Origin: a virus
Taxonomy: Duplodnaviria > Heunggongvirae > Uroviricota > Caudoviricetes
Virus record (IMG/VR): IMGVR_UViG_2526164690_000042
Reading direction: 5' to 3' (one strand)
Length of the DNA stretch: 17,689 bases
Both the position numbers and the translations under genes were made by a program. Below the pieces are notes generated by a model, which saw only the letters and a list, made by a program, of their open reading frames with translations, did not search any database and was not told the origin of the DNA. This document shows positions 1 to 17,689 of this stretch, piece after piece. The first letter of the stretch is position 1; every line of letters starts with the position of its first letter.

Positions 1-1119
1 TCAAACAACCAATTTAACCCATTCCTGACCACGAGTATCGTTATAACGATCGGTGGTTGCTTGGACTTTATGTCCCAGTAATGTTTTTGTATCAATACCC
101 TGCGCGCGGTACAGTCGTTCTGACAGGGAGCGTTGTTCATGAAATGTTGGCGGAGTTTTTCCTGCTGGTGGAGTTATCCCAGCCAGATCCCGTGCTTTGG
201 CAAAGTAGTCGCTCAGGTTGTCTTTACTCATCGGCTTTGGTTGTTTCTGGTGCCGACTATGGATTAGATATGGACTTAATATTCTGTCTCGGCACCCATC
301 AATAACTTCTTTTAACGTTATCCCAATGGCATCACAGCGTAGTGTAAGCGGTAACGCCAGACGCATTCCGGTTTTTCCCTGGGTGATATGCAAGTGTTCG
401 TTCCACACATCTGAAAAACGCATGTGGCAAATGTCATCACGGCGCTGACCAGTAACAATCGCAAGAAGCATTGCGTTACGGATAAAGTGTTTTTCAGGCG
501 TTGCGTTGTAAATTTTTTGCCAGTCTTCTAGGGTGAGCCTGGCTCTAGTTACTTTAGGGATCGGTTTACGGGTAGCCTCCGGAGGATTCCATCCAGGAGG
601 AACTTCCCCTGCATGCTGTGCTTCTTTATAAATATCAACCCATAATCCACGATTTACTCTCGCTGTGCTGACCATGTCTTTATCCAGCCACTCATCCAGT
701 ATTAATGCAAAGTCTCTTACTTCCAGTTCTTTCAATGGGTGGTTTCCCAGACGGGAAACCAGGTATGCAGCCATTCGGGCTTTTTCTTTGTGAGTTGTAG
801 CTGCAATATCTCCATTTTTCAGTCGCGTGTCCTGTATTTTCAGATATCGATCAACCCATGCCTTTAATCTGATACCCCGACGCTTTGTTGCTGACGGACT
901 TTCATCAATTTTGCGCATGAAATATTCAGCCTCTGCTGCAGCTATTCGCTGATTGGCTGTGGAAGCGATTTTTTCTGCCTTACCTTTGTCTGTTCCGAGC
1001 CCGTGAAATTTTCCAGTCACAGGGTTTTTATACTGGTAGTAAACTCTGCCAGTTCTGCGATCAAATTTTTCGTAAAGTCCGGCTACGTCAGTGCTGTTTT
1101 TTCGTGGCCTCGGTGACAT
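1..1119 (-). CDS. int: Lambda-type tyrosine integrase (site-specific recombinase)
   Basis: 372-aa ORF whose C-terminal half resembles lambda Int as I recall it (…VTGQRRDDICHMRFSDV…, …PPTFHEQRSLSERLY…, …GHKVQATTDRYNDTRGQEW…), with conserved R, H-x-x-R and catalytic Tyr positions. It overlaps the upstream excisionase-like ORF by about 30 nt, as in lambda. The stop codon sits at the window edge. Confidence 0.9.
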   Translation of the reverse strand: MSPRPRKNSTDVAGLYEKFDRRTGRVYYQYKNPVTGKFHGLGTDKGKAEKIASTANQRIAAAEAEYFMRKIDESPSATKRRGIRLKAWVDRYLKIQDTRLKNGDIAATTHKEKARMAAYLVSRLGNHPLKELEVRDFALILDEWLDKDMVSTARVNRGLWVDIYKEAQHAGEVPPGWNPPEATRKPIPKVTRARLTLEDWQKIYNATPEKHFIRNAMLLAIVTGQRRDDICHMRFSDVWNEHLHITQGKTGMRLALPLTLRCDAIGITLKEVIDGCRDRILSPYLIHSRHQKQPKPMSKDNLSDYFAKARDLAGITPPAGKTPPTFHEQRSLSERLYRAQGIDTKTLLGHKVQATTDRYNDTRGQEWVKLVV

Positions 1120-1366
1120 GAGTTAAAATCTCCTTCAGTGCATCATCATCGCCAGTATGAATTTCCGGCGCAATTCCTGTTTCACCAGGTCCAACAAATA
1201 CTGCTCGGCGATCTATCAGCCAACGCCCACGAATTTTTTGTGGTCTTGGAACGATGTATCCTAGTTTTCCGTATTTCACCAGGGTAGTGTTTGTTATTGG
1301 GAGACTGAACCGTTTTGGCTTCCACTCATCGAGCGTTATCAGGTACTGTTCGCTCATGGCTATCAC
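1088..1366 (-). CDS. xis: Excisionase-like small DNA-binding protein (Xis)
   Basis: 92-aa ORF immediately upstream of and overlapping int on the same strand, with a basic C-terminal half. Position and size fit a directionality factor. The start could be an internal Met (MSEQYL…). Confidence 0.65.
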   Translation of the reverse strand: MIAMSEQYLITLDEWKPKRFSLPITNTTLVKYGKLGYIVPRPQKIRGRWLIDRRAVFVGPGETGIAPEIHTGDDDALKEILTHVTEATKKQH

Positions 1367-1418
1367 TCCGGAACGCGCCAGTTGCAGAATACCAACGACA
1401 ACTGGCGACGGTTGAACA

Positions 1419-2759
1419 TTAAAAATCAGCCTGACTCGGGATCAGTTTTTGCCAGATAACTGAAACGTATTTTGCCTGATAACGGGCGTCATCAAGTGCA
1501 TTATGGCGCTCACCTTCGAATGGAATAGCCGTTCTGGCATCGAAGTCTATGGCTTTCCCCAGCTCAACGATTGTGCGTACATCGCGATCGTTGTAGTAAC
1601 GCCACGGGCAGGGGATCCCCTGCCGTTCGTATGAACGGCGCAAAATCGTGTTATCGAAGTTGGCTCCATTTCCCCAGACCTGAACAAAAAATTCACCGGA
1701 GTTTTCGTCGATAAATTCCCGCAATTGTAACAGTGCATCATCTAACGGGATTTCATCGGTCATAATGGCAGATTGCGCTTCGCGTGATTGCTTAAGCCAC
1801 CATTTAATGGTGTCCCGATCAATGACTCCGCCAGCAGTTTCCAGATCGATAGTCTTACTAAATTCCGGTCCCATATCTCCGGTTTGCGGATCGAAAAATA
1901 TTGCACCTATTGAGATGATCGGGGCATCAGGATTTTTTCCCATGGTTTCAAGGTCGATCATTAGATGGTCACACGTCCTGCTGGTGGATGTGATTTCGTG
2001 ATGACCGTTCACCTTAATTGAGTGATCTGCCGTCTCGCCAGTTTCATTATCGCTATCGTGATGCTGATTGCCGCCAGTGTTCTCCTTGTGTGGATGTTCA
2101 GCGCCTTCCATTTTCTCCGGATCATCTTCCTGAACTTCAACCTGATACTCTTCATCGAATGTTTCCTGGTATGTTGCGTCGCCCATCACCGCGCCACAAT
2201 CAGGGCAGTTGCCGCCGCCGGTCTGACCGCAGGCGGTGCAGGCTTTTTCCACTTCCTGTTGCGCCACTGGTTCAGGCTGTTTCGTTTCTGGCTCGTTTTG
2301 TAACGCATTTGGGCTGTTTTGTTCCGCTTTTTGGTAGTTCCGTTCCGATTCATGCTGGTTCTGGTTTACAGAATCGCGGGTCTGGATCCCCTTAACCCAT
2401 TTCGGATCATTCGGGTCGCTAATCCCTGCAACAAATTCTCCGCGAGAGGCAGCAAGCAACTTATCGGCGTCAGGCTGGCTGATATTGGCTGCCTGCATAA
2501 TTTTGTTTACTTCGTCAGCGGTAACTTTTACCGGCTCTGGTTGTGCGGTCGTGTCAGATGCACCAGTATTTTGTTGTGAACCTGAGTATGTACTGTTTTT
2601 GCGGGCGAAATATTCTTCTTTCGTGATTTCAGTAGCCCCGGCAGCCAGTGCCTTATCCAGACCAGAAAGTTTGTTTGCGCGACCGTATTTTTCGCCATCC
2701 TTGTCGGTGAAGAGGAAGTAGAACGGCCCCTCACGCTCTACAGATGGTTCGACTTCCAC
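1419..2759 (-). CDS. DEDDh-family (DnaQ-like) 3'-5' exonuclease with N-terminal acidic low-complexity region and Cys4 zinc ribbon
   Basis: The C-terminal ~180 aa carry Exo I (MIDLETMG), Exo II ([13 protein letters not shown]) and Exo III ([13 protein letters not shown]) motifs. The N-terminal ~260 aa are Q/E/N/D-rich and include [16 protein letters not shown]. The start overlaps the stop of the upstream gene by about 22 nt. Confidence 0.8.
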
Positions 2760-3889
2760 TTTGCATTCGGTTTTTCGTTGTCCGGAATTGCCGTTTCCAC
2801 TGCATCAGTTTCTGGTACTGGCGACGAGAGAGTATCAGTTGCGCTCTGATTTGTTCCTTCATCTTCAAACACGCCCTTTGTAGTCAGGTATTCAGTAATG
2901 TATTTGTTCAGTGCCACAGGGTCTTTGTGAATGTCGATCGGACGTTCACGGACAAGGCCAAAAATAGTCTGGCGGTCGTAGCGAAGGGCATCAGGCTGTT
3001 TGCGCATTGATGCCGAGATACGCTTCCAGTCTTCGCGGTCGTTGTCGATAACTTCATTTTTTGCCCAGCGATGGATGCTGCCGTCAATGTTTCCGGCATC
3101 CACATCACCAGGCCAGAGAGCGTAGGCCAGTTCGTCATCCAGTGTTTTCCATGTCTGCTTGTATTCGCGATGAATGGCAGCAATGACCGGGCTGATTTTT
3201 CCTGTTGAATTTTCAGTGTGCTGTTGATTGGTTCTGGCGCGGGCGAGATCAACAACAGACGTGTATTTTCCGGTTTCCTTGCGTTCACCTTCGCGACGTT
3301 TTTTCCAGATGCGCATCTCTGCCTGAATTTCGGGCCATTTGGCACCAGGCTTACATTTATGCTTAACCCACCCGATGGCATGCAGCTTAAGCTCCGGATA
3401 CATGGCGTTAACTTCTGGCATTTTCATCAACGCTTCAACGATATGTCCGTCGAATGTTGCCATGTCTTCCTGCAACAATTCCTGTGCGCTAATAACCATA
3501 TCAACGGTGATGTTTTCACATGTGTCGAACTTAACCATGACAGCGTTCTGTACTTCAGGGGCCAGCTTGTCAAAAGTGACGTTCATCGGATCTGATTCAG
3601 TCTCAACCGGAACAAAGGAAGCAGACTCCTCATCCCAGCGGTTTTCCTGCATATATTCAGCATCCCATGAATCGAGGGCAGGGCGGGGTATGCCAGGTTT
3701 ATCCTCGCAGATAATAAATTTATAAGCGCAGTCCTGAGCAGCCGGATAATGTTCCAGGAATTGCCAGTGAAATTTTGCTCGAGCACGGCGTTCGTCGCCA
3801 GCTTCAATAGCTGTGGCTACAGCCACAGCGCCTTCTTCCCTTGTTGCCAGTTCGTCAGGAATGGCGGCGCAAATAAAGACTTTACTCAT
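2738..3889 (-). CDS. Hypothetical phage early-left protein (383 aa), function unknown
   Basis: Long uninterrupted ORF co-oriented with and translationally coupled to the exonuclease gene. No motif I can confidently assign. It sits where a recombination partner (SSAP) is found in lambdoid phages. Confidence 0.7.
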
Positions 3890-3982
3890 TTTGTTTTAAC
3901 CTCATGACAGATTTAAGGATGAACAAATCCCTGCCATTGCTGGCATATAAGAATGAAACCGGATATTTATTACGGAACTGTT

Positions 3983-4174
3983 TTAAAGACCTGCCGGGAT
4001 TTCGATATTATCCTGGTGAATAACTTTATCTACCGGGTAACAGTTACCGGGAATTTTCTGTTCGGTTGCTGCAGTCATACACTCCTGCATTGTCCTGTGA
4101 ACACTGACTGCAATATCAACTGGCTCTCCGGAAACAAGAAAAACTGTCAGAACAAGTGCAAATGCTGTATTCAT
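3983..4174 (-). CDS. Small secreted or membrane-anchored protein (~63 aa) with N-terminal signal-like hydrophobic segment
   Basis: The 81-aa track ORF 3983..4228 is trimmed to the internal Met at 4174, which has an AGGA Shine-Dalgarno about 8 nt upstream and overlaps the upstream gene stop as ATGA. The product begins MNTAFALVLTVFLVSGEP…. Confidence 0.4.
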   Translation of the reverse strand: MNTAFALVLTVFLVSGEPVDIAVSVHRTMQECMTAATEQKIPGNCYPVDKVIHQDNIEIPAGL

Positions 4175-4359: not shown

Positions 4360-4848
4360 TATCGCGCCCTCAACAATGAGTTTTGTGATGCGGTGCCTGG
4401 TGCCTCCAGGTGACGTTAACCAGTTAACAACTAACGCCGGATACAGAGAATCCAACCATAACACTGTTTTTGGTTTTAACTGTTCCGCGTGCGCTTAGCC
4501 GCATTCACCGCATCACAAAATTCACTTTAAAAAGGGCGGCAGAGCAGTCACGGAGTAAAACTGATACCGCCAAACGTCACCAGAAAATTGATAACAGAGG
4601 GCGTTGCAGCGGGGTTGTCACTTAAGCGTATGGTCAACCTGACAACCCGGTGTCCTCAACGGGGGAAGGAATAACCCCGCCATACTTACCGCCGCGCCAT
4701 TTCGCGGATTGCCACAACCAGAAGCGCACGGTCGAAGAAATTTAACGACAAGACTTATATGCAAAGGGATCTCGCCGTGCGCTTTCGTGTTATGCCCTGA
4801 CTTTTCAGGGTAAATTAACCTGTGGAAACCTGTTTTTACTGGCGCTAA

Positions 4849-5182: not shown

Positions 5183-5225
5183 ACTATAGGAAATGCCTAA
5201 TTTCTTGTCAATAGGCTATGCCTAA
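5183..5225 (-). promoter_or_regulatory. Leftward early promoter (PL-like) with overlapping operator (OL-like)
   Basis: Read on the minus strand: -35 TTGACA (plus 5206..5211), 17-nt spacer, -10 TATAGT (plus 5183..5188). The half-site pair ATAGGC-N3-GCCTAA at 5211..5225 abuts the -35. A 20-mer here (tgtcaataggctatgcctaa, 5206..5225) is the exact reverse complement of 5850..5869 on the other side of the repressor gene. Confidence 0.6.
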
Positions 5226-11077: not shown

Positions 11078-11367
11078 CCTGGCCTGAAGCATTCACAACG
11101 GTAGGAATTGCGATGGCGGTGGCGCTGGTGGTGTATTCGATTTGCCACTGGGGATAAAAACGGTTTGCGGGAAAAGGATAGTTAAGTAGAATTGCTGCGG
11201 GTGCTTGAGGCTATCTGCCTCGGGCATGAACACCAACGGCAGATAGAGAAAAGCCCCAGTTAACATTACGCGTCCTGCAAGACGCTTAACATTAATCTGA
11301 GGCTCAATCCATGCTGAACACATGTAGGTTAGCCTCTTACGTGCCGAAAGGCAAGGAGAAGCAGGCT

Positions 11368-11523
11368 ATGAAGCAGCAAAAGGCGATGTTAATCGCCCTG
11401 ATCGTCATCTGTTTAACCGTCATAGTGACGGCACTGGTAACGAGGAAAGACCTCTGCGAGGTGCGAATCCGAACCGGTCAGACGGAGGTCGCTGTCTTCG
11501 TAGACTACGAATCTGAGAAGTAA
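11368..11523 (+). CDS. hok: Hok/Gef-family type I toxin (51 aa membrane peptide)
   Basis: MKQQKAMLIALIVICLTVIVTALVTRKDLCEVRIRTGQTEVAVFVDYESEK parallels Hok (…[37 protein letters not shown]). AAGGAG Shine-Dalgarno upstream. The track ORF starts in frame at 11311, which may be a mok-like leader. Confidence 0.85.
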   Translation: MKQQKAMLIALIVICLTVIVTALVTRKDLCEVRIRTGQTEVAVFVDYESEK

Positions 11524-14742: not shown

Positions 14743-14781
14743 TTGTCGGAATTAATTACGGACCGTTATTATCCGGCTCCC

Positions 14782-14857
14782 GGCCCTTTAGCTCAGTGGT
14801 GAGAGCGAGCGACTCATAATCGCCAGGTCGCTGGTTCAAATCCAGCAAGGGCCACCA
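14782..14857 (+). tRNA. tRNA with CAU anticodon; ileX/ileZ-like (tRNA-Ile2, lysidine-type) rather than tRNA-Met
   Basis: Cloverleaf readable by eye: acceptor GGCCCTT/AAGGGCC, D-arm GCTC…GAGC, anticodon loop CTCATAA, T-arm GCTGG-TTCAAAT-CCAGC, 3' ACCA. Overall sequence is close to what I recall of E. coli ileX. Confidence 0.85.
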
Positions 14858-14967
14858 TCACAAACCGCCATTAGCTTATCAGGAAGAGCAGACGACACCA
14901 TAACAGGGTTGTTGGTGCGGGGGCGGGTCCCCGATGGCGGTCCATTATCGGTATTCTGCGTTGTTAG

Positions 14968-15044
14968 CTCAGCCGGACAGAGCAATTGCCTTCTAAGCAA
15001 TCGGTCAGTGGTTCGACTCCACTACAACGCGCCACACTTATTTT
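14968..15044 (+). tRNA. tRNA-Arg (anticodon UCU, reads AGA/AGG)
   Basis: Acceptor GCGTTGT/ACAACGC, D-arm GCTC…GAGC, anticodon stem ATTGC/GCAAT with loop CTTCTAA, T-arm AGTGG-TTCGACT-CCACT, 3' GCCA. Confidence 0.85.
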
Positions 15045-15082: not shown

Positions 15083-15204
15083 CGCCCGGCGCATATCAAC
15101 CACAGAGTCCGTTTCGGGGGTGAGCTTACGGAGTGGTCAGTGTGACTTTCTCTGTGGGCAGATCGCTCCCGGGCGTTGGCTCACCCACCCAAAGGAACGT
15201 CACG

Positions 15205-15636: not shown

Positions 15637-15884
15637 CGGTAAAACTGCGCCTGGCTGTGGCTGCACTCCTGCTGTTTCTGGTGGTGATGGTGGATTTCAC
15701 CAGCAGAATCATGTCGGTGCTGGCGGATGGGGTGCTGGTCTGCGGCATTGTGGTATTGCTGTGGCCGGTGATAAAAAGAACAGCCTGCATAATGCTTGAT
15801 TTTTTTGTTTACTGTTTATTAAAAATACTACTGCATGGTGAATCCCCCTGTGCGGAGGGGCAATCAGCAACCAGGTATATGTGA
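15633..15884 (+). CDS. Small hydrophobic membrane protein coupled to the TerB-like gene
   Basis: GTG start overlaps the TerB-like stop. Two hydrophobic segments (LAVAALLLFLVVMV and GVLVCGIVVLLWPVI). The C-terminal end and exact start are uncertain. Confidence 0.4.
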   Translation: MTVKLRLAVAALLLFLVVMVDFTSRIMSVLADGVLVCGIVVLLWPVIKRTACIMLDFFVYCLLKILLHGESPCAEGQSATRYM

Positions 15885-15966
15885 TAATCGCGGATTCAGG
15901 TGCTGATACTGAATTCACCGGGAGGCACCCGGCACCATGCAAGAAAAAGAATGTGCATGCAAACAT

Positions 15967-15990
15967 GCCCCTCTCCGGAGGGGCTTTTTT
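15967..15990 (+). terminator. Intrinsic terminator (plus strand) ending the TerB-like/membrane unit
   Basis: gcccctc-tccg-gaggggc hairpin followed by tttttt. Confidence 0.6.
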
Positions 15991-15995
15991 ATGGG

Positions 15996-16021
15996 TAAAA
16001 AATGCCCGAATGGGTTCGGGC
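15996..16021 (-). terminator. Candidate minus-strand intrinsic terminator, convergent with the previous one
   Basis: Plus strand aaaaaat-gcccgaa-tggg-ttcgggc. On the minus strand this is a 7-bp hairpin followed by a T-run. Confidence 0.4.
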
Positions 16022-16117
16022 AATAGCATGAGATACTGATATTGTTGTGTTGTTATCGTGTGGATTTTAACCAGGGTTTATCAGGCTGCGCAACTGCGTG
16101 GCCTTTTTTCATTTCTT

Positions 16118-16205: not shown

Positions 16206-16460
16206 ATGACATTTAAACATTATGATGTTGTCAGGGCGGCGTCGCCGTCAGACCTTGCGGAAAAGCTGACACACAAACTGAAAGAGGGCTGGCAGCCGTT
16301 TGGTAGACCGAAGAAAACAAATAAAATCAGTGTAATACGTGAAATTGCTGAAAAGTTAATCAAATTTAACACCAAGAAAAATCAAGGTATTAGGAAGTTG
16401 CTCATAGCTAGTATACCAAGTCTTTTTGCCAGAAATTTTTCTGGATTGTCTACTTGCTAA
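16206..16460 (+). CDS. DUF1737-like small phage protein, probably with an altered or chimeric C-terminus
   Basis: The N-terminus MTFKHYDVVRAASPSDLAEKLTHKLKEGWQPFG resembles a small conserved late-region protein of lambdoid phages as I recall it. The remaining ~50 aa are Lys-rich, and the stop overlaps the 3' end of the convergent integrase gene. Confidence 0.4.
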   Translation: MTFKHYDVVRAASPSDLAEKLTHKLKEGWQPFGRPKKTNKISVIREIAEKLIKFNTKKNQGIRKLLIASIPSLFARNFSGLSTC

Positions 16461-17469
16461 CCACGAGCGGCAAATCCAGTGTTGGTGTGATTTTTGTTTT
16501 ACGATCGTAAATCAACACCTGATTTTCTGTTTTATGCCCGCTGAAAATTTGTTTGTCGCGACTGCTGCCTTCGTAATCTGAGATCCCCTTGGCTTTTATG
16601 TCGTGAAAATTGCACCCGAACGGAACGCCAACTTTTTGCTCGGCTGCGCGTTTAGCCTGATTCCACCAGTTATTCAGCGTTTTAGCTATGACTTTCCCGC
16701 CTTTGGTTGTATTGATCACATATTCGCATGTACAGGAAGATACATTTCGGGCTAACTGGATCGCTGTACGTAATCGCGGTGACCATTCCTTGATTTGTTT
16801 GGTGCCGGTTTTGTTTTGCTCAATGTAGATCCCTTTATCCATAATATCCTGCCATTTCAACTCAAGCACATCACCGAGTCTTGCCGCACAGAGATAGGAA
16901 ATCTCCATTGCAATGCGTAACTGTGGAATTGCTTCCGCATATATCGCCGCATACTGTTCATCGGTGATGTAAACAGTGCGGGCTTTAAGAGAGAATTTTC
17001 TGACTCCTTTGCATGGGTTATTCTTCACATACCCACGCTCATATCCCCACCCGTATACTCGACTCAGGCTTGCCAGTTCATGATTTGCCTGGGTCTTGCT
17101 CTCAAGCCCTCGTTTATCCATGAAAATTCTTACCTGCTCAGTTTTGACATTATCAGCAAGCACTTTTCCGAATACCATCAGCAACGCCTTCTGATGTTGT
17201 CGATAATCTTTTTGGGTTCGGGGGGCCAGTTCTGTAAATGCAGGGGAGTCCATAAACATGTGCCATAATTTAGCTACGGTCATTATGTTGTGGAGTTTTG
17301 CTTTTTCCAGTTCATAATTTTGCCAGACTTTAGCTACGCTGGTTTTCCGCACTCTTCCTAGCCCTATACTTCTTGTACTTCCTTCGGGTTTCCACACGTA
17401 ACTGTAACCATTCGATCTAACCCGCGGTGGCAGTACATTATCTTTTTTATTTTTTCTTGGTCTTCCCAT
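16450..17469 (-). CDS. int: Second tyrosine integrase (phage integrase family), unrelated in sequence to the first
   Basis: 339-aa ORF with a C-terminal catalytic region (…RLGDVLELKWQDI…, …FHDIKAKGISDY…, …GHKTENQVLIYDRK…) carrying R, H-x-x-(R/K) and Tyr positions. An excisionase-like ORF overlaps its start. Confidence 0.85.
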   Translation of the reverse strand: MGRPRKNKKDNVLPPRVRSNGYSYVWKPEGSTRSIGLGRVRKTSVAKVWQNYELEKAKLHNIMTVAKLWHMFMDSPAFTELAPRTQKDYRQHQKALLMVFGKVLADNVKTEQVRIFMDKRGLESKTQANHELASLSRVYGWGYERGYVKNNPCKGVRKFSLKARTVYITDEQYAAIYAEAIPQLRIAMEISYLCAARLGDVLELKWQDIMDKGIYIEQNKTGTKQIKEWSPRLRTAIQLARNVSSCTCEYVINTTKGGKVIAKTLNNWWNQAKRAAEQKVGVPFGCNFHDIKAKGISDYEGSSRDKQIFSGHKTENQVLIYDRKTKITPTLDLPLVVSK

Positions 17470-17689
17470 TGTTCAGCGCCTCAAAATCGGGTTCAGCAGA
17501 AACCAGTTCAGATGTTTTTGGCATCGTTGTCAGACCGTGTGGAATATCCCTGCGGAGAACTATGGGTTCGTTTTTAGGGCCGATTACAAATGGGATGCCG
17601 TGCAGTCTTAACTGGTGTTGCTGTTTTGTGTATCGCTCGTATTTCGTGATCTCTTTAATCTCTGCTGGAGATAGAGTTAATTCGTACAT
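17447..17689 (-). CDS. xis: Excisionase-like protein of the second element
   Basis: 80-aa ORF overlapping the start of the second integrase. It begins MYELTLSP…, similar to lambda Xis MYLTLQEW…. The start codon is the last three bases of the window. Confidence 0.6.
   Translation of the reverse strand: MYELTLSPAEIKEITKYERYTKQQHQLRLHGIPFVIGPKNEPIVLRRDIPHGLTTMPKTSELVSAEPDFEALNNGKTKKK

Follow-up and report, generated by a model that had tools for sequence, protein, structure and literature searches.

Does the early-left region of this prophage encode an unusual two-gene recombination module or a single exonuclease gene? The window, by which we mean the whole stretch of 17,689 nucleotides of viral DNA that was analysed, carries two minus-strand open reading frames at 2738-3889 (383 aa) and 1419-2759 (446 aa) that overlap by 22 nt. 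An earlier note, made from the sequence alone, had reported both ORFs at these positions. It read them as two coupled genes, a 383-aa candidate annealing partner and a DnaQ-like exonuclease, with a recombination or an interference function. We find that the region 1419-3889 is one early-left exonuclease gene, that its two-ORF look is most likely artificial and that the finding as such is an ordinary one. The ORFs, the DEDDh domain, the acidic linker with four cysteines and the position of the locus are all real, whereas the division into two genes is not.

One gene or two

PHROG 2082, a profile of 823 aa, spans both ORFs, with its positions 1-379 on the 383-aa ORF and 379-823 on the 446-aa ORF. 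With a single A inserted into the A5 run, the frame opens to an ORF of 823 aa, the product of which is identical to RefSeq WP_000048279.1, annotated as “exonuclease”. The equivalent gene of phage Tritos, TRITO_27, is a single CDS of 2472 nt with 95% nucleotide identity to the window gene. In the nearest complete genomes, one extra base is the sole difference over window positions 1300-4000, and an 823-aa CDS is annotated there. YdfE_C and the DEDDh domain lie within one ORF in 79 of 87 related loci, and in the mapped long relatives from an exhaustive search (at least 450 aa) the region of the 383-aa ORF occupies the N-terminal half.

Hence the supposed coupling of two genes loses its basis, as the overlap of the ORFs is the footprint that a 1-nt homopolymer deletion leaves behind. 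The A5 run in place of A6 would cut the reading frame after K373. The GTG at 2759 is merely the first start codon met by an ORF finder, and inspection of the sequence upstream of it revealed no Shine-Dalgarno motif. Programmed frameshifting and translational coupling were considered and rejected, since the relatives have A6 and a single ORF, with neither a conserved split nor a slippery site, and since the GTG lacks that motif. The intact gene is among the commonest prophage genes of E. coli; of the 5,426 complete genomes of this species that were searched, 4,800 had matches, the median genome at 2 places. The features of the locus are collected in Table 1.

Table 1. Coordinates of the exonuclease gene, its parts and its operon context in the window
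Feature	Position	Strand	Basis or remark
RecE-like prophage exonuclease gene	1419..3889	(-)	PHROG 2082 tiling, Tritos TRITO_27, one-A repair
YdfE_N region, about aa 1-240	3170..3889	(-)	Pfam PF27430, AF2 model, domain map
YdfE_C region, about aa 241-345, helical	2855..3169	(-)	PF27432; pLDDT 80-92
Frameshift site, A5 on gene strand (T5 on plus strand)	2771..2775	(-)	Alignments; wild type A6
Out-of-frame tail of upstream ORF	2738..2770	(-)	10 aberrant codons after K373, then TAG stop
Small conserved folded unit (GPFYF...GRANKL...EEYxARK)	2595..2732	(-)	Intact aa 387-432 = aa 10-55 of 446-aa ORF
Acidic, Q/N-rich linker shared with Rac-type RecE	2028..2471	(-)	Intact aa 474-621
Cys4 knuckle C551-x2-C554-x7-C562-x2-C565	2196..2240	(-)	Kept in Rac-SA53 RecE
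DEDDh 3'-5' exonuclease domain (Rv2179c-like, DexA-like)	1452..1967	(-)	PF16473, 8kel_A, catalytic residues
Excisionase	1088..1366	(-)	Directly downstream of exonuclease; PF07825, phrog_629, RefSeq locus
Lambda-type integrase, end of early-left operon	1..1119	(-)	PF09003, PF00589
Sigma-70-like promoter TTGACA-17-TATAGT	5183..5211	(-)	Consensus scan, 11/12 matches

Origin of the frameshift

The 383-aa product is encoded by only one contig, AIGH01000018.1 of the E. coli DEC8C draft GCA_000249835.2, and 14 of 14 sampled 100-mers of this contig occur in the window without a mismatch, all with the same offset. The prophage host is thus very likely the O111-type E. coli strain DEC8C, with the gene belonging to the early-left region of a lambdoid prophage. 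Relatives show T6 on the plus strand where the window has T5 at 2771-2775, and the run was A6 in all 80 of the 80 related loci in which the site was found. The 61-mer across the junction had no exact match among the 3,218 copies found when 5,426 complete E. coli genomes were searched. In strain 2014C-3050 the same run is A7, and PGAP marks the gene as frameshifted.

All seven single-event indels between the window and the nearest genome are private to the window; four of them are 1-nt losses in A/T runs of at least 3, and one lies in a CC pair. Apart from the A5 run, they are located at 14746, 15080, 15110-11, 15778, 16313 and 16322. Because all seven are private, an assembly error is likelier than a real mutation, and the A5 run is most likely a homopolymer that was assembled one base short in the draft. 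This call is based on the pattern of private indels and not on reads, and real slippage in the run would look identical. The next candidate, considerably less probable and yet to be taken seriously, is a real and recent pseudogene in which A6 slipped to A5 in DEC8C as a strain-private inactivation. Only the 373-aa YdfE_N/YdfE_C fragment with 10 aberrant residues would then be made, comparable to the YdfE remnant of the K-12 Qin prophage, and the exonuclease part would be silent. The A7 allele indicates that the run is length-unstable in some sense, and in about 5% of the related loci (L017, L024, L033 and L083) the gene is broken at some other point. In addition, the PPompW copies carry a 4-nt deletion, and truncated N-terminal fragments recur in complete genomes (e.g. 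P0122, P0333 and P0347). However, seven private indels alongside about 20 substitutions over 17.7 kb are hard to credit as mutations between near-identical prophages but typical of homopolymer miscalls, and the A5 allele is known from one draft assembly only. The preferred explanation of an assembly error carries a general caution: a homopolymer miscalled by 1 nt in a draft assembly can make one ordinary gene resemble an overlapping two-gene operon.

Parts of the intact protein

In our best explanation, the single gene encodes a protein of four parts. It begins with the YdfE_N and YdfE_C modules, continues with a small folded unit and an acidic linker that contains a Cys4 knuckle, and ends in the DEDDh domain. 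We hold this architecture, jointly with the mechanism proposed below, to be highly probable.

The 383-aa ORF had been described as devoid of any recognisable motif. Instead, precomputed Pfam matches to the exact 383-aa product and to its relatives identify YdfE_N (PF27430) and YdfE_C (PF27432), and PHROG 5943 (257 aa) matches aa 1-257. According to the Pfam labels from which the name is taken, YdfE of the K-12 Qin prophage has exactly the two domains of this ORF; we take YdfE to be the Qin remnant of such a gene, truncated by an insertion. In the AF2 model, YdfE_N opens with a small beta-alpha-beta unit (aa 1-85), and a helical domain comes next at aa 103-205. The N-terminal model is moderate (pLDDT 69.9) because the homologue searches returned mostly near-identical E. 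coli fragments. YdfE_C is the most conserved module and is common to RecE-family proteins; in tblastn its region matches the RecE-like genes of Gifsy, HK225 and a Klebsiella phage.

The 264-aa stretch from the junction to the exonuclease domain contains 49 D+E versus 25 K+R as well as the motif CTAC-x7-CPDC. Of the roughly 260-aa disordered region proposed earlier, the acidic linker with its four cysteines stands, but residues 10-55 of the 446-aa ORF are predicted to be folded. They form a hairpin and a helix with a pLDDT of about 75 in an otherwise poor AF2 model (pLDDT 38 for the 446-aa ORF), and the sequence of this unit also occurs in P0126, P0132 and the RecE-type protein of locus L015. 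The linker shares 73% identity with aa 471-611 of Rac-SA53 RecE, and the DNA match to recE is 84.7%.

The DnaQ-like DEDDh domain that had been recognised at the end of the 446-aa ORF is borne out by a near-complete match to the Rv2179c-like family PF16473 (E 9e-68, 227.9 bits versus a cutoff of 27, profile positions 2-177 of 177). The best sequence match in the PDB by phmmer is T4 DexA (8kel_A, E 7e-7), while Rv2179c itself gave no phmmer match at E ≤0.01 in the PDB search. In the alignment with DexA, which also served to check the motifs for degeneration, residues D646, E648, D746, H796 and D801 of the intact protein correspond to D7, E9, D119, H186 and D191. The residues of Exo I (D-x-E), Exo II (D) and Exo III (H-x4-D) are therefore all conserved.

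The exonuclease takes the place of lambda Exo/Bet/Gam or Rac RecE/RecT and adjoins xis and int, as had been noticed before; no recT lies between it and the excisionase gene. The prophages with WP_000048279.1 and WP_000048412.1 and phage Tritos have the same neighbours, with ydfD and dicB upstream and xis and int downstream, and the gene for WP_000048279.1 differs from the window gene by nothing but the missing A. The promoter in Table 1 lies just downstream of a racR-like repressor gene and faces DUF1391, DicF, dicB, ydfD, the exonuclease gene, xis and int in this order. We infer that it drives the exonuclease.

Possible function and comparison with known systems

Lifting of the RacR/DicA-like repressor would allow transcription of the dicB-type operon and thereby production of the exonuclease. 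The DEDDh domain would then use two-metal catalysis to remove nucleotides from free 3' ends, its substrate most likely being DNA, as it is for DexA and the E. coli protein EcD, which are 3'-5' DNA exonucleases (PMC12153337). The RecE-like N-terminal and central modules may act as a scaffold or targeting part. This is a guess, since the fold of the N-terminal module matched nothing in the fold searches. If the exonuclease acts without a dedicated annealase, degradation, interference or trimming of 3' ends would be expected over recombination by an exonuclease-annealase pair. Overall, the intact protein is probably a 3'-5' DNA exonuclease that acts without an annealase. Substrate and role are extrapolated from domains with about 25-30% identity: a role in DNA degradation or interference has a little less than an even chance, processing of ends related to recombination with the help of host factors appears distinctly less likely, and RNA as the substrate would be quite a surprise. 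A search for functional literature on Rv2179c-like prophage exonucleases, on ydfE and on assays of the 823-aa family returned nothing. The location in a repressed operon makes a role in defence of the lysogen less plausible.

Nuclease-based interference, one of the functions put forward in the earlier note, is possible. A more specific version would make the intact protein an HREX-type anti-phage nuclease that degrades T-even DNA of the 5hmC type, with the RecE-like part as an accessory; we regard this as unlikely. It would agree with DexA as the closest sequence in the PDB and with the conserved catalytic residues. EcD protects against T4 and selectively degrades modified (5hmC-type) DNA of T-even phages (PMC12153337). 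Moreover, WP_000048412.1 (823 aa, 99.2% nucleotide identity) is listed in Table S3 among the bacterial DexA homologues (PMC12153337). However, the DexA residues that recognise 5hmC are not clearly conserved: W152 aligns with Y766, a position with W in several family members, and D169 with F783, which is flanked by D782 and D784 in a part where the alignment is uncertain. The tetramer residue D90, which is lost in the EcD-like dimer state, is kept as D718, and S87 of DexA corresponds to P715. Judged from primers, EcD is a short stand-alone protein starting with MIDTET, unlike the 823-aa architecture. PADLOC yielded a generic DEDDh match and no specific defence system, and the gene does not occupy a moron position but belongs to the early-left operon, which is repressed.

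An annealase role of the 383-aa ORF was rejected on the basis of family scans, fold searches and locus L015. No Pfam or PHROG match to the sequence families of single-strand annealing proteins (RecT/Red-beta, Erf and Rad52-like) was found on this ORF, and fold searches of its predicted structure revealed no such fold. A version of YdfE_N/YdfE_C that is 85% identical is part of a true RecE at L015, which has its own adjacent RecT. Red and RecET annealases need 3' tails, whereas a 3'-5' exonuclease leaves 5' overhangs. Accordingly, the earlier model of a 383-aa annealase coupled to a 446-aa exonuclease via the 22-nt overlap or a programmed frameshift retains hardly any credibility: the position does equal that of exo/bet and recE/recT, and in a sister clade these N-terminal modules appear to be joined to a domain that may be Rad52-like, which would suggest a recombination-associated family of modules, but the split exists in this assembly alone and the A5 run does not provide an in-frame slippery heptamer. 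What survives of the original interpretation is an exonuclease with intact motifs in the place of Red or RecET, together with a possible role in interference; the two-gene recombinase does not.

Among known proteins, T4 DexA (PDB 8KEL) shares with the single-gene product the DEDDh fold family and all five catalytic residues. DexA is a stand-alone domain of 227 aa, whereas the window protein has about 640 additional N-terminal residues. Rv2179c of Mycobacterium tuberculosis gives its name to PF16473, the family to which the window protein is a strong full-length match. According to the Pfam family description it is a small bacterial exoribonuclease.

RecE (exodeoxyribonuclease VIII) of Rac, Gifsy-1/2 and HK225 has the same operon position and a comparably large size. 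It shares a YdfE_C-type module with the window protein (27-43% identity) and, in Rac-SA53, the central linker and its Cys4 knuckle; besides the linker, aa 262-336 of the window protein are weakly similar to Rac-SA53 RecE. The true RecE proteins L015, P0128, P0229 and P0230 even carry the same YdfE_N/YdfE_C N-terminus. In contrast, the C-terminal nuclease is of the DEDDh type (3'-5') in the window protein and of the PD-(D/E)XK type (5'-3') in RecE. A PD-(D/E)XK domain (PF12684-like) is present in RecE of Rac-SA53, Gifsy-2 and HK225 and absent from the window protein, which also lacks the N-terminal PF06630 domain of RecE and a recT neighbour. With 283 bits, the match to the RecE equivalog NF007259 of NCBIfam is below the cutoff of 1269 and is confined to aa 246-625 (model positions 271-602). 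RecT was found in the flanks of none of the 83 DEDDh-type loci, while it is adjacent in the sole PD-(D/E)XK-type locus, and recE is followed by recT in Rac, Gifsy-2 and HK225. The link between RecT and nuclease type is thus drawn from 83 loci, one locus and three annotated phages, and the set of related loci, obtained by YdfE_C alignment, consists of close Escherichia and Shigella loci only. No annealase is annotated in the near-identical RefSeq locus, and none was detected in scans of the larger ORFs of the window. Judged by its sequence, the common annotation of the DEDDh gene as “exodeoxyribonuclease VIII” is a misnomer, given the DEDDh nuclease, the lack of PF06630 and recT and a RecE score below the cutoff.

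Conceivably, though less probably than not, the YdfE_N/YdfE_C block together with the zinc-knuckle linker is a portable chassis for interchangeable DNA-acting heads in lambdoid phages. The heads found on it are the PD-(D/E)XK 5'-3' exonuclease of RecE, the DEDDh 3'-5' exonuclease of the window gene, a possible Rad52-like annealase of the type seen in Stenotrophomonas phage BUCT708 and a ParB-like domain (P0324). If this holds true, the variant with the DEDDh head would act independently of RecT, for example by breaking down modified or competing phage DNA upon induction or by processing ends with a polarity opposite to that of RecE. This variant is present in most E. coli genomes. In a 2023 review that deals with recombineering proteins (PMC11611040), the N-terminal part of RecE figures as a domain of unknown function. 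Full-length RecE is reported to stimulate linear-linear recombineering. As its non-catalytic two-thirds are shared with RecE, the DEDDh gene is a natural comparison for the role of the N-terminal part, and the value of this comparison does not depend on the split observed here.

One gene in place of two overlapping ORFs

The earlier note had read the DNA at 1419-3889 as an exonuclease coupled to a separate 383-aa protein. Two ORFs overlapping by 22 nt are indeed present, and the second carries a DEDDh exonuclease domain that matches PF16473 over the entire profile (E 9e-68). Together, however, they are one gene, and the split is no biological feature. Both ORFs tile a single 823-aa PHROG 2082 "exonuclease" profile (positions 1-379 and 379-823, respectively), and phage Tritos, with 95% DNA identity, has a single annotated CDS of 2472 nt compared to 2471 nt in the window. 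Alignment places the missing base in a homopolymer, where the window reads AACG-AAAAACC and its relatives AACGAAAAAACC. With one A added, the two reading frames join into an 823-aa ORF, and the encoded protein is identical to RefSeq WP_000048279.1. The 383-aa ORF is native through K373, followed by 10 aberrant codons and a stop. The GTG at 2759 is only the first start codon past a stop in the native frame, and inspection of its upstream sequence revealed no Shine-Dalgarno motif. In practice, both a programmed frameshift and a design of two coupled genes can be excluded.

The gene is placed after DicF, dicB and ydfD. The antisense RNA DicF belongs to the exonuclease's own leftward operon and has dicB and ydfD downstream of it. 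Of 5,426 complete genomes, 4,800 contain matches to the gene, with a median of two places each. Already known and extremely common in prophages, the gene has its protein in RefSeq and its domains in Pfam and PHROGs.

Features of the window (nucleotides) and of the intact protein (residues)
Feature	Position	Strand	Source or remark
Lambda-type integrase, downstream of exonuclease	1-1119		Profile searches of window ORFs
Excisionase, downstream of 446-aa ORF	1088-1366		Profile searches of window ORFs
Downstream ORF, 446 aa, C-terminal DEDDh domain	1419-2759	-	ORF in window
Upstream ORF, 383 aa	2738-3889	-	ORF in window
Frameshift site, T5 run	2771-2775	+	
DicF antisense sRNA	4534-4585	-	Rfam RF00039, 76.7 bits
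Strong sigma-70-like promoter	5183-5211		Beside racR-like repressor gene, facing DicF/dicB/ydfD/exonuclease string
hok/sok module	11199-11373	+	sok 113.5 bits
Eight clustered substitutions	11310-11324		Versus nearest genome, at start of hok-side ORF
Two tRNA genes	14782-14854, 14958-15031	+	Downstream of Q antiterminator
Six further indel events	14746, 15080, 15110-15111, 15778, 16313, 16322		Absent from all complete E. coli genomes
STnc100 sRNA	15807-15996	+	147.8 bits
AgvB sRNA	15997-16058	-	96.5 bits
Second integrase (339 aa) and DUF4224 gene	16450-17689	-	Right after Q antiterminator/tRNA/TerB region
YdfE_N	residues 1-240		Pfam
YdfE_C	residues 241-345		Pfam
Small conserved unit	residues 387-432		
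RecE-like linker, C551-x2-C554-x7-C562-x2-C565	residues 474-621		73% identity to middle of Rac-SA53 RecE
DEDDh domain	residues 642-813		

Origin of the split allele

Over window 1300-4000, the nearest complete genomes differ from the window by a single additional base, and one CDS is annotated in them. Searching 5,426 complete E. coli genomes with a 61-mer that spans the site gave 3,218 places in 2,003 of them, without a single exact match; all of the best places are 62 nt long. The run is A6 in all 80 related loci in which the site could be located, and in 79 of 87 loci a single ORF holds both YdfE_C and the DEDDh domain. In public data, the exact 383-aa product occurs only as EHW20711.1 of E. 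coli DEC8C, on draft contig AIGH01000018.1, where 14 of 14 100-mers sampled from the locus are found unchanged in the window, always at the same offset. Strain 2014C-3050 (complete genome NZ_CP027472.1, L011:420-2892) has A7 instead, and PGAP called its gene frameshifted. The homopolymer is a recurrent spot for length miscalls or slippage.

Compared to the nearest complete genome, the 17.7 kb of the window show seven indel events and about 20 substitutions. All tested indels are private to the window in a search of complete E. coli genomes; four are 1-nt losses in A/T runs of three or more and one affects a CC pair. The six besides the frameshift site are mostly 1-nt losses in short runs, one falling within the DUF3927 gene (15778) and two within a DUF1737 remnant (16313 and 16322). 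Private short-run indels are the usual product of homopolymer miscalls in draft assemblies, and near-identical prophages do not normally accumulate such a pattern. On this sequence comparison, the A5 run is probably an assembly error, while a real, strain-private frameshift appears rather unlikely. The pattern suggests assembly indel errors across the whole window, and therefore its other short or split ORFs deserve distrust.

The substitution cluster at the hok-side ORF contrasts with the scattered differences in the rest of the window. For the tRNA pair, the near-identical RefSeq locus gives the annotations Ile and Arg; the pair's position downstream of the Q antiterminator is typical of EHEC lambdoid prophages. 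STnc100 and AgvB, the anti-GcvB sRNA of EHEC prophages, lie back to back near the prophage's truncated late end. The placement of the second integrase and DUF4224 gene indicates that a second prophage abuts or interrupts the first. In a near-identical genome (L003:30153-32702), this integrase region is followed by a further exonuclease-family copy, WP_032278809.1.

A shared N-terminal chassis with differing C-termini

The 383-aa region, previously described as lacking a recognisable motif, carries Pfam YdfE_N and YdfE_C. In an AF2 model of the N-terminal part (mean pLDDT 69.9, pTM 0.35), disordered loops connect three elements: a small beta-alpha-beta unit, a helical domain and YdfE_C, which is helical and well predicted. 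The exonuclease motifs proved not to be degenerate: all five catalytic residues are conserved, and the best PDB sequence match of the DEDDh domain is 8kel_A, confirmed as T4 DexA. Although often annotated as RecE, the intact protein is not RecE: the RecE equivalog model gave it 283 bits where the cutoff is 1269, and domain searches found neither the N-terminal PF06630 nor the RecE-type PD-(D/E)XK nuclease.

An exhaustive search of 1.84 billion representatives for relatives of the 383-aa region yielded no more than 171 clusters. The long relatives that were mapped measure roughly 450-1,090 aa and contain this region in their N-terminal half. The domain map indicates free shuffling of YdfE_N or PF06630 at the N-terminus, YdfE_C, an optional Zn-knuckle linker and, C-terminally, DEDDh, PD-(D/E)XK or a third domain. 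The latter is found, for example, in WCS67724.1 of Stenotrophomonas phage BUCT708 (aa about 420-710; L007:3474-5606) and in representatives P0130, P0132, P0140, P0147, P0155 and P0162. PHROGs labels it "exonuclease", and it has no similarity to the RecE nuclease or DEDDh. Its motifs GTSINxxYMxMRATExFGPxGxGW ... KKSLTDAxKKALSxLGF can be aligned to the Rad52 core, and weak matches to PF04098 were obtained for 7 of 10 members (best E 0.0037); hhalign to human RAD52 (residues 55-161) gave a probability of just 1.9%. Tentatively, this domain may be a Rad52-like annealase on a RecE-type chassis. If so, different phages would join one N-terminal chassis to one or the other half of a two-component recombinase. 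P0324, a 555-aa protein of Enterobacter cloacae, combines YdfE_N and YdfE_C with a ParB-like domain (PF17762, precomputed Pfam), a fourth kind of C-terminal head on this chassis.

Likely function

The 383-aa region had been proposed as the annealing partner of the exonuclease. This proposal fails, since Pfam and PHROG scans gave no SSAP family match and a closely related module is paired with a separate RecT elsewhere. In the protein of L015:6259-10290 (MAG contig JAGTSE010000010), the first 373 residues are 85% identical to those of the window, the C-terminus is a RecE PD-(D/E)XK nuclease, and the stop codon is overlapped by recT, which follows immediately. The module thus coexists with a separate annealase rather than replacing one. 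Relative to the window gene, the nuclease domain seems to have been swapped directly. RecT was found in the flanks of none of 83 DEDDh-type loci. The annotation of the near-identical RefSeq locus includes no annealase, and scans of the larger window ORFs detected none. While recE of Rac, Gifsy-2 and HK225 is in each case followed by recT, the window gene is without an annealase partner.

The exonuclease would be expressed only upon derepression and would perform two-metal 3'-5' hydrolysis, most likely on DNA, with the RecE-like parts possibly serving as scaffold or for targeting. Since a 3'-5' nuclease leaves 5' overhangs that cannot be used by a Red- or RecET-type annealase, two-component recombination seems less likely to us than DNA degradation, interference or the trimming of 3' ends. 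The DEDDh variant has its YdfE modules in common with RecE, whose N-terminal part was described as a domain of unknown function in a 2023 review (PMC11611040).

Judged from its sequence, the intact protein could possibly act like the HREX exonucleases. Kang et al. 2025 reported 3'-5' DNA exonuclease activity for T4 DexA and for EcD, a short homologue from E. coli, as well as protection against T4 by EcD; their list of bacterial homologues includes WP_000048412.1 (PMC12153337), an 823-aa allele with 99.2% DNA identity to the window gene. On the other hand, PADLOC gave only a generic DEDDh match for the exonuclease. Residues tied to 5hmC recognition in that study are not clearly conserved in the window protein, whereas the tetramer residue missing from EcD is retained.
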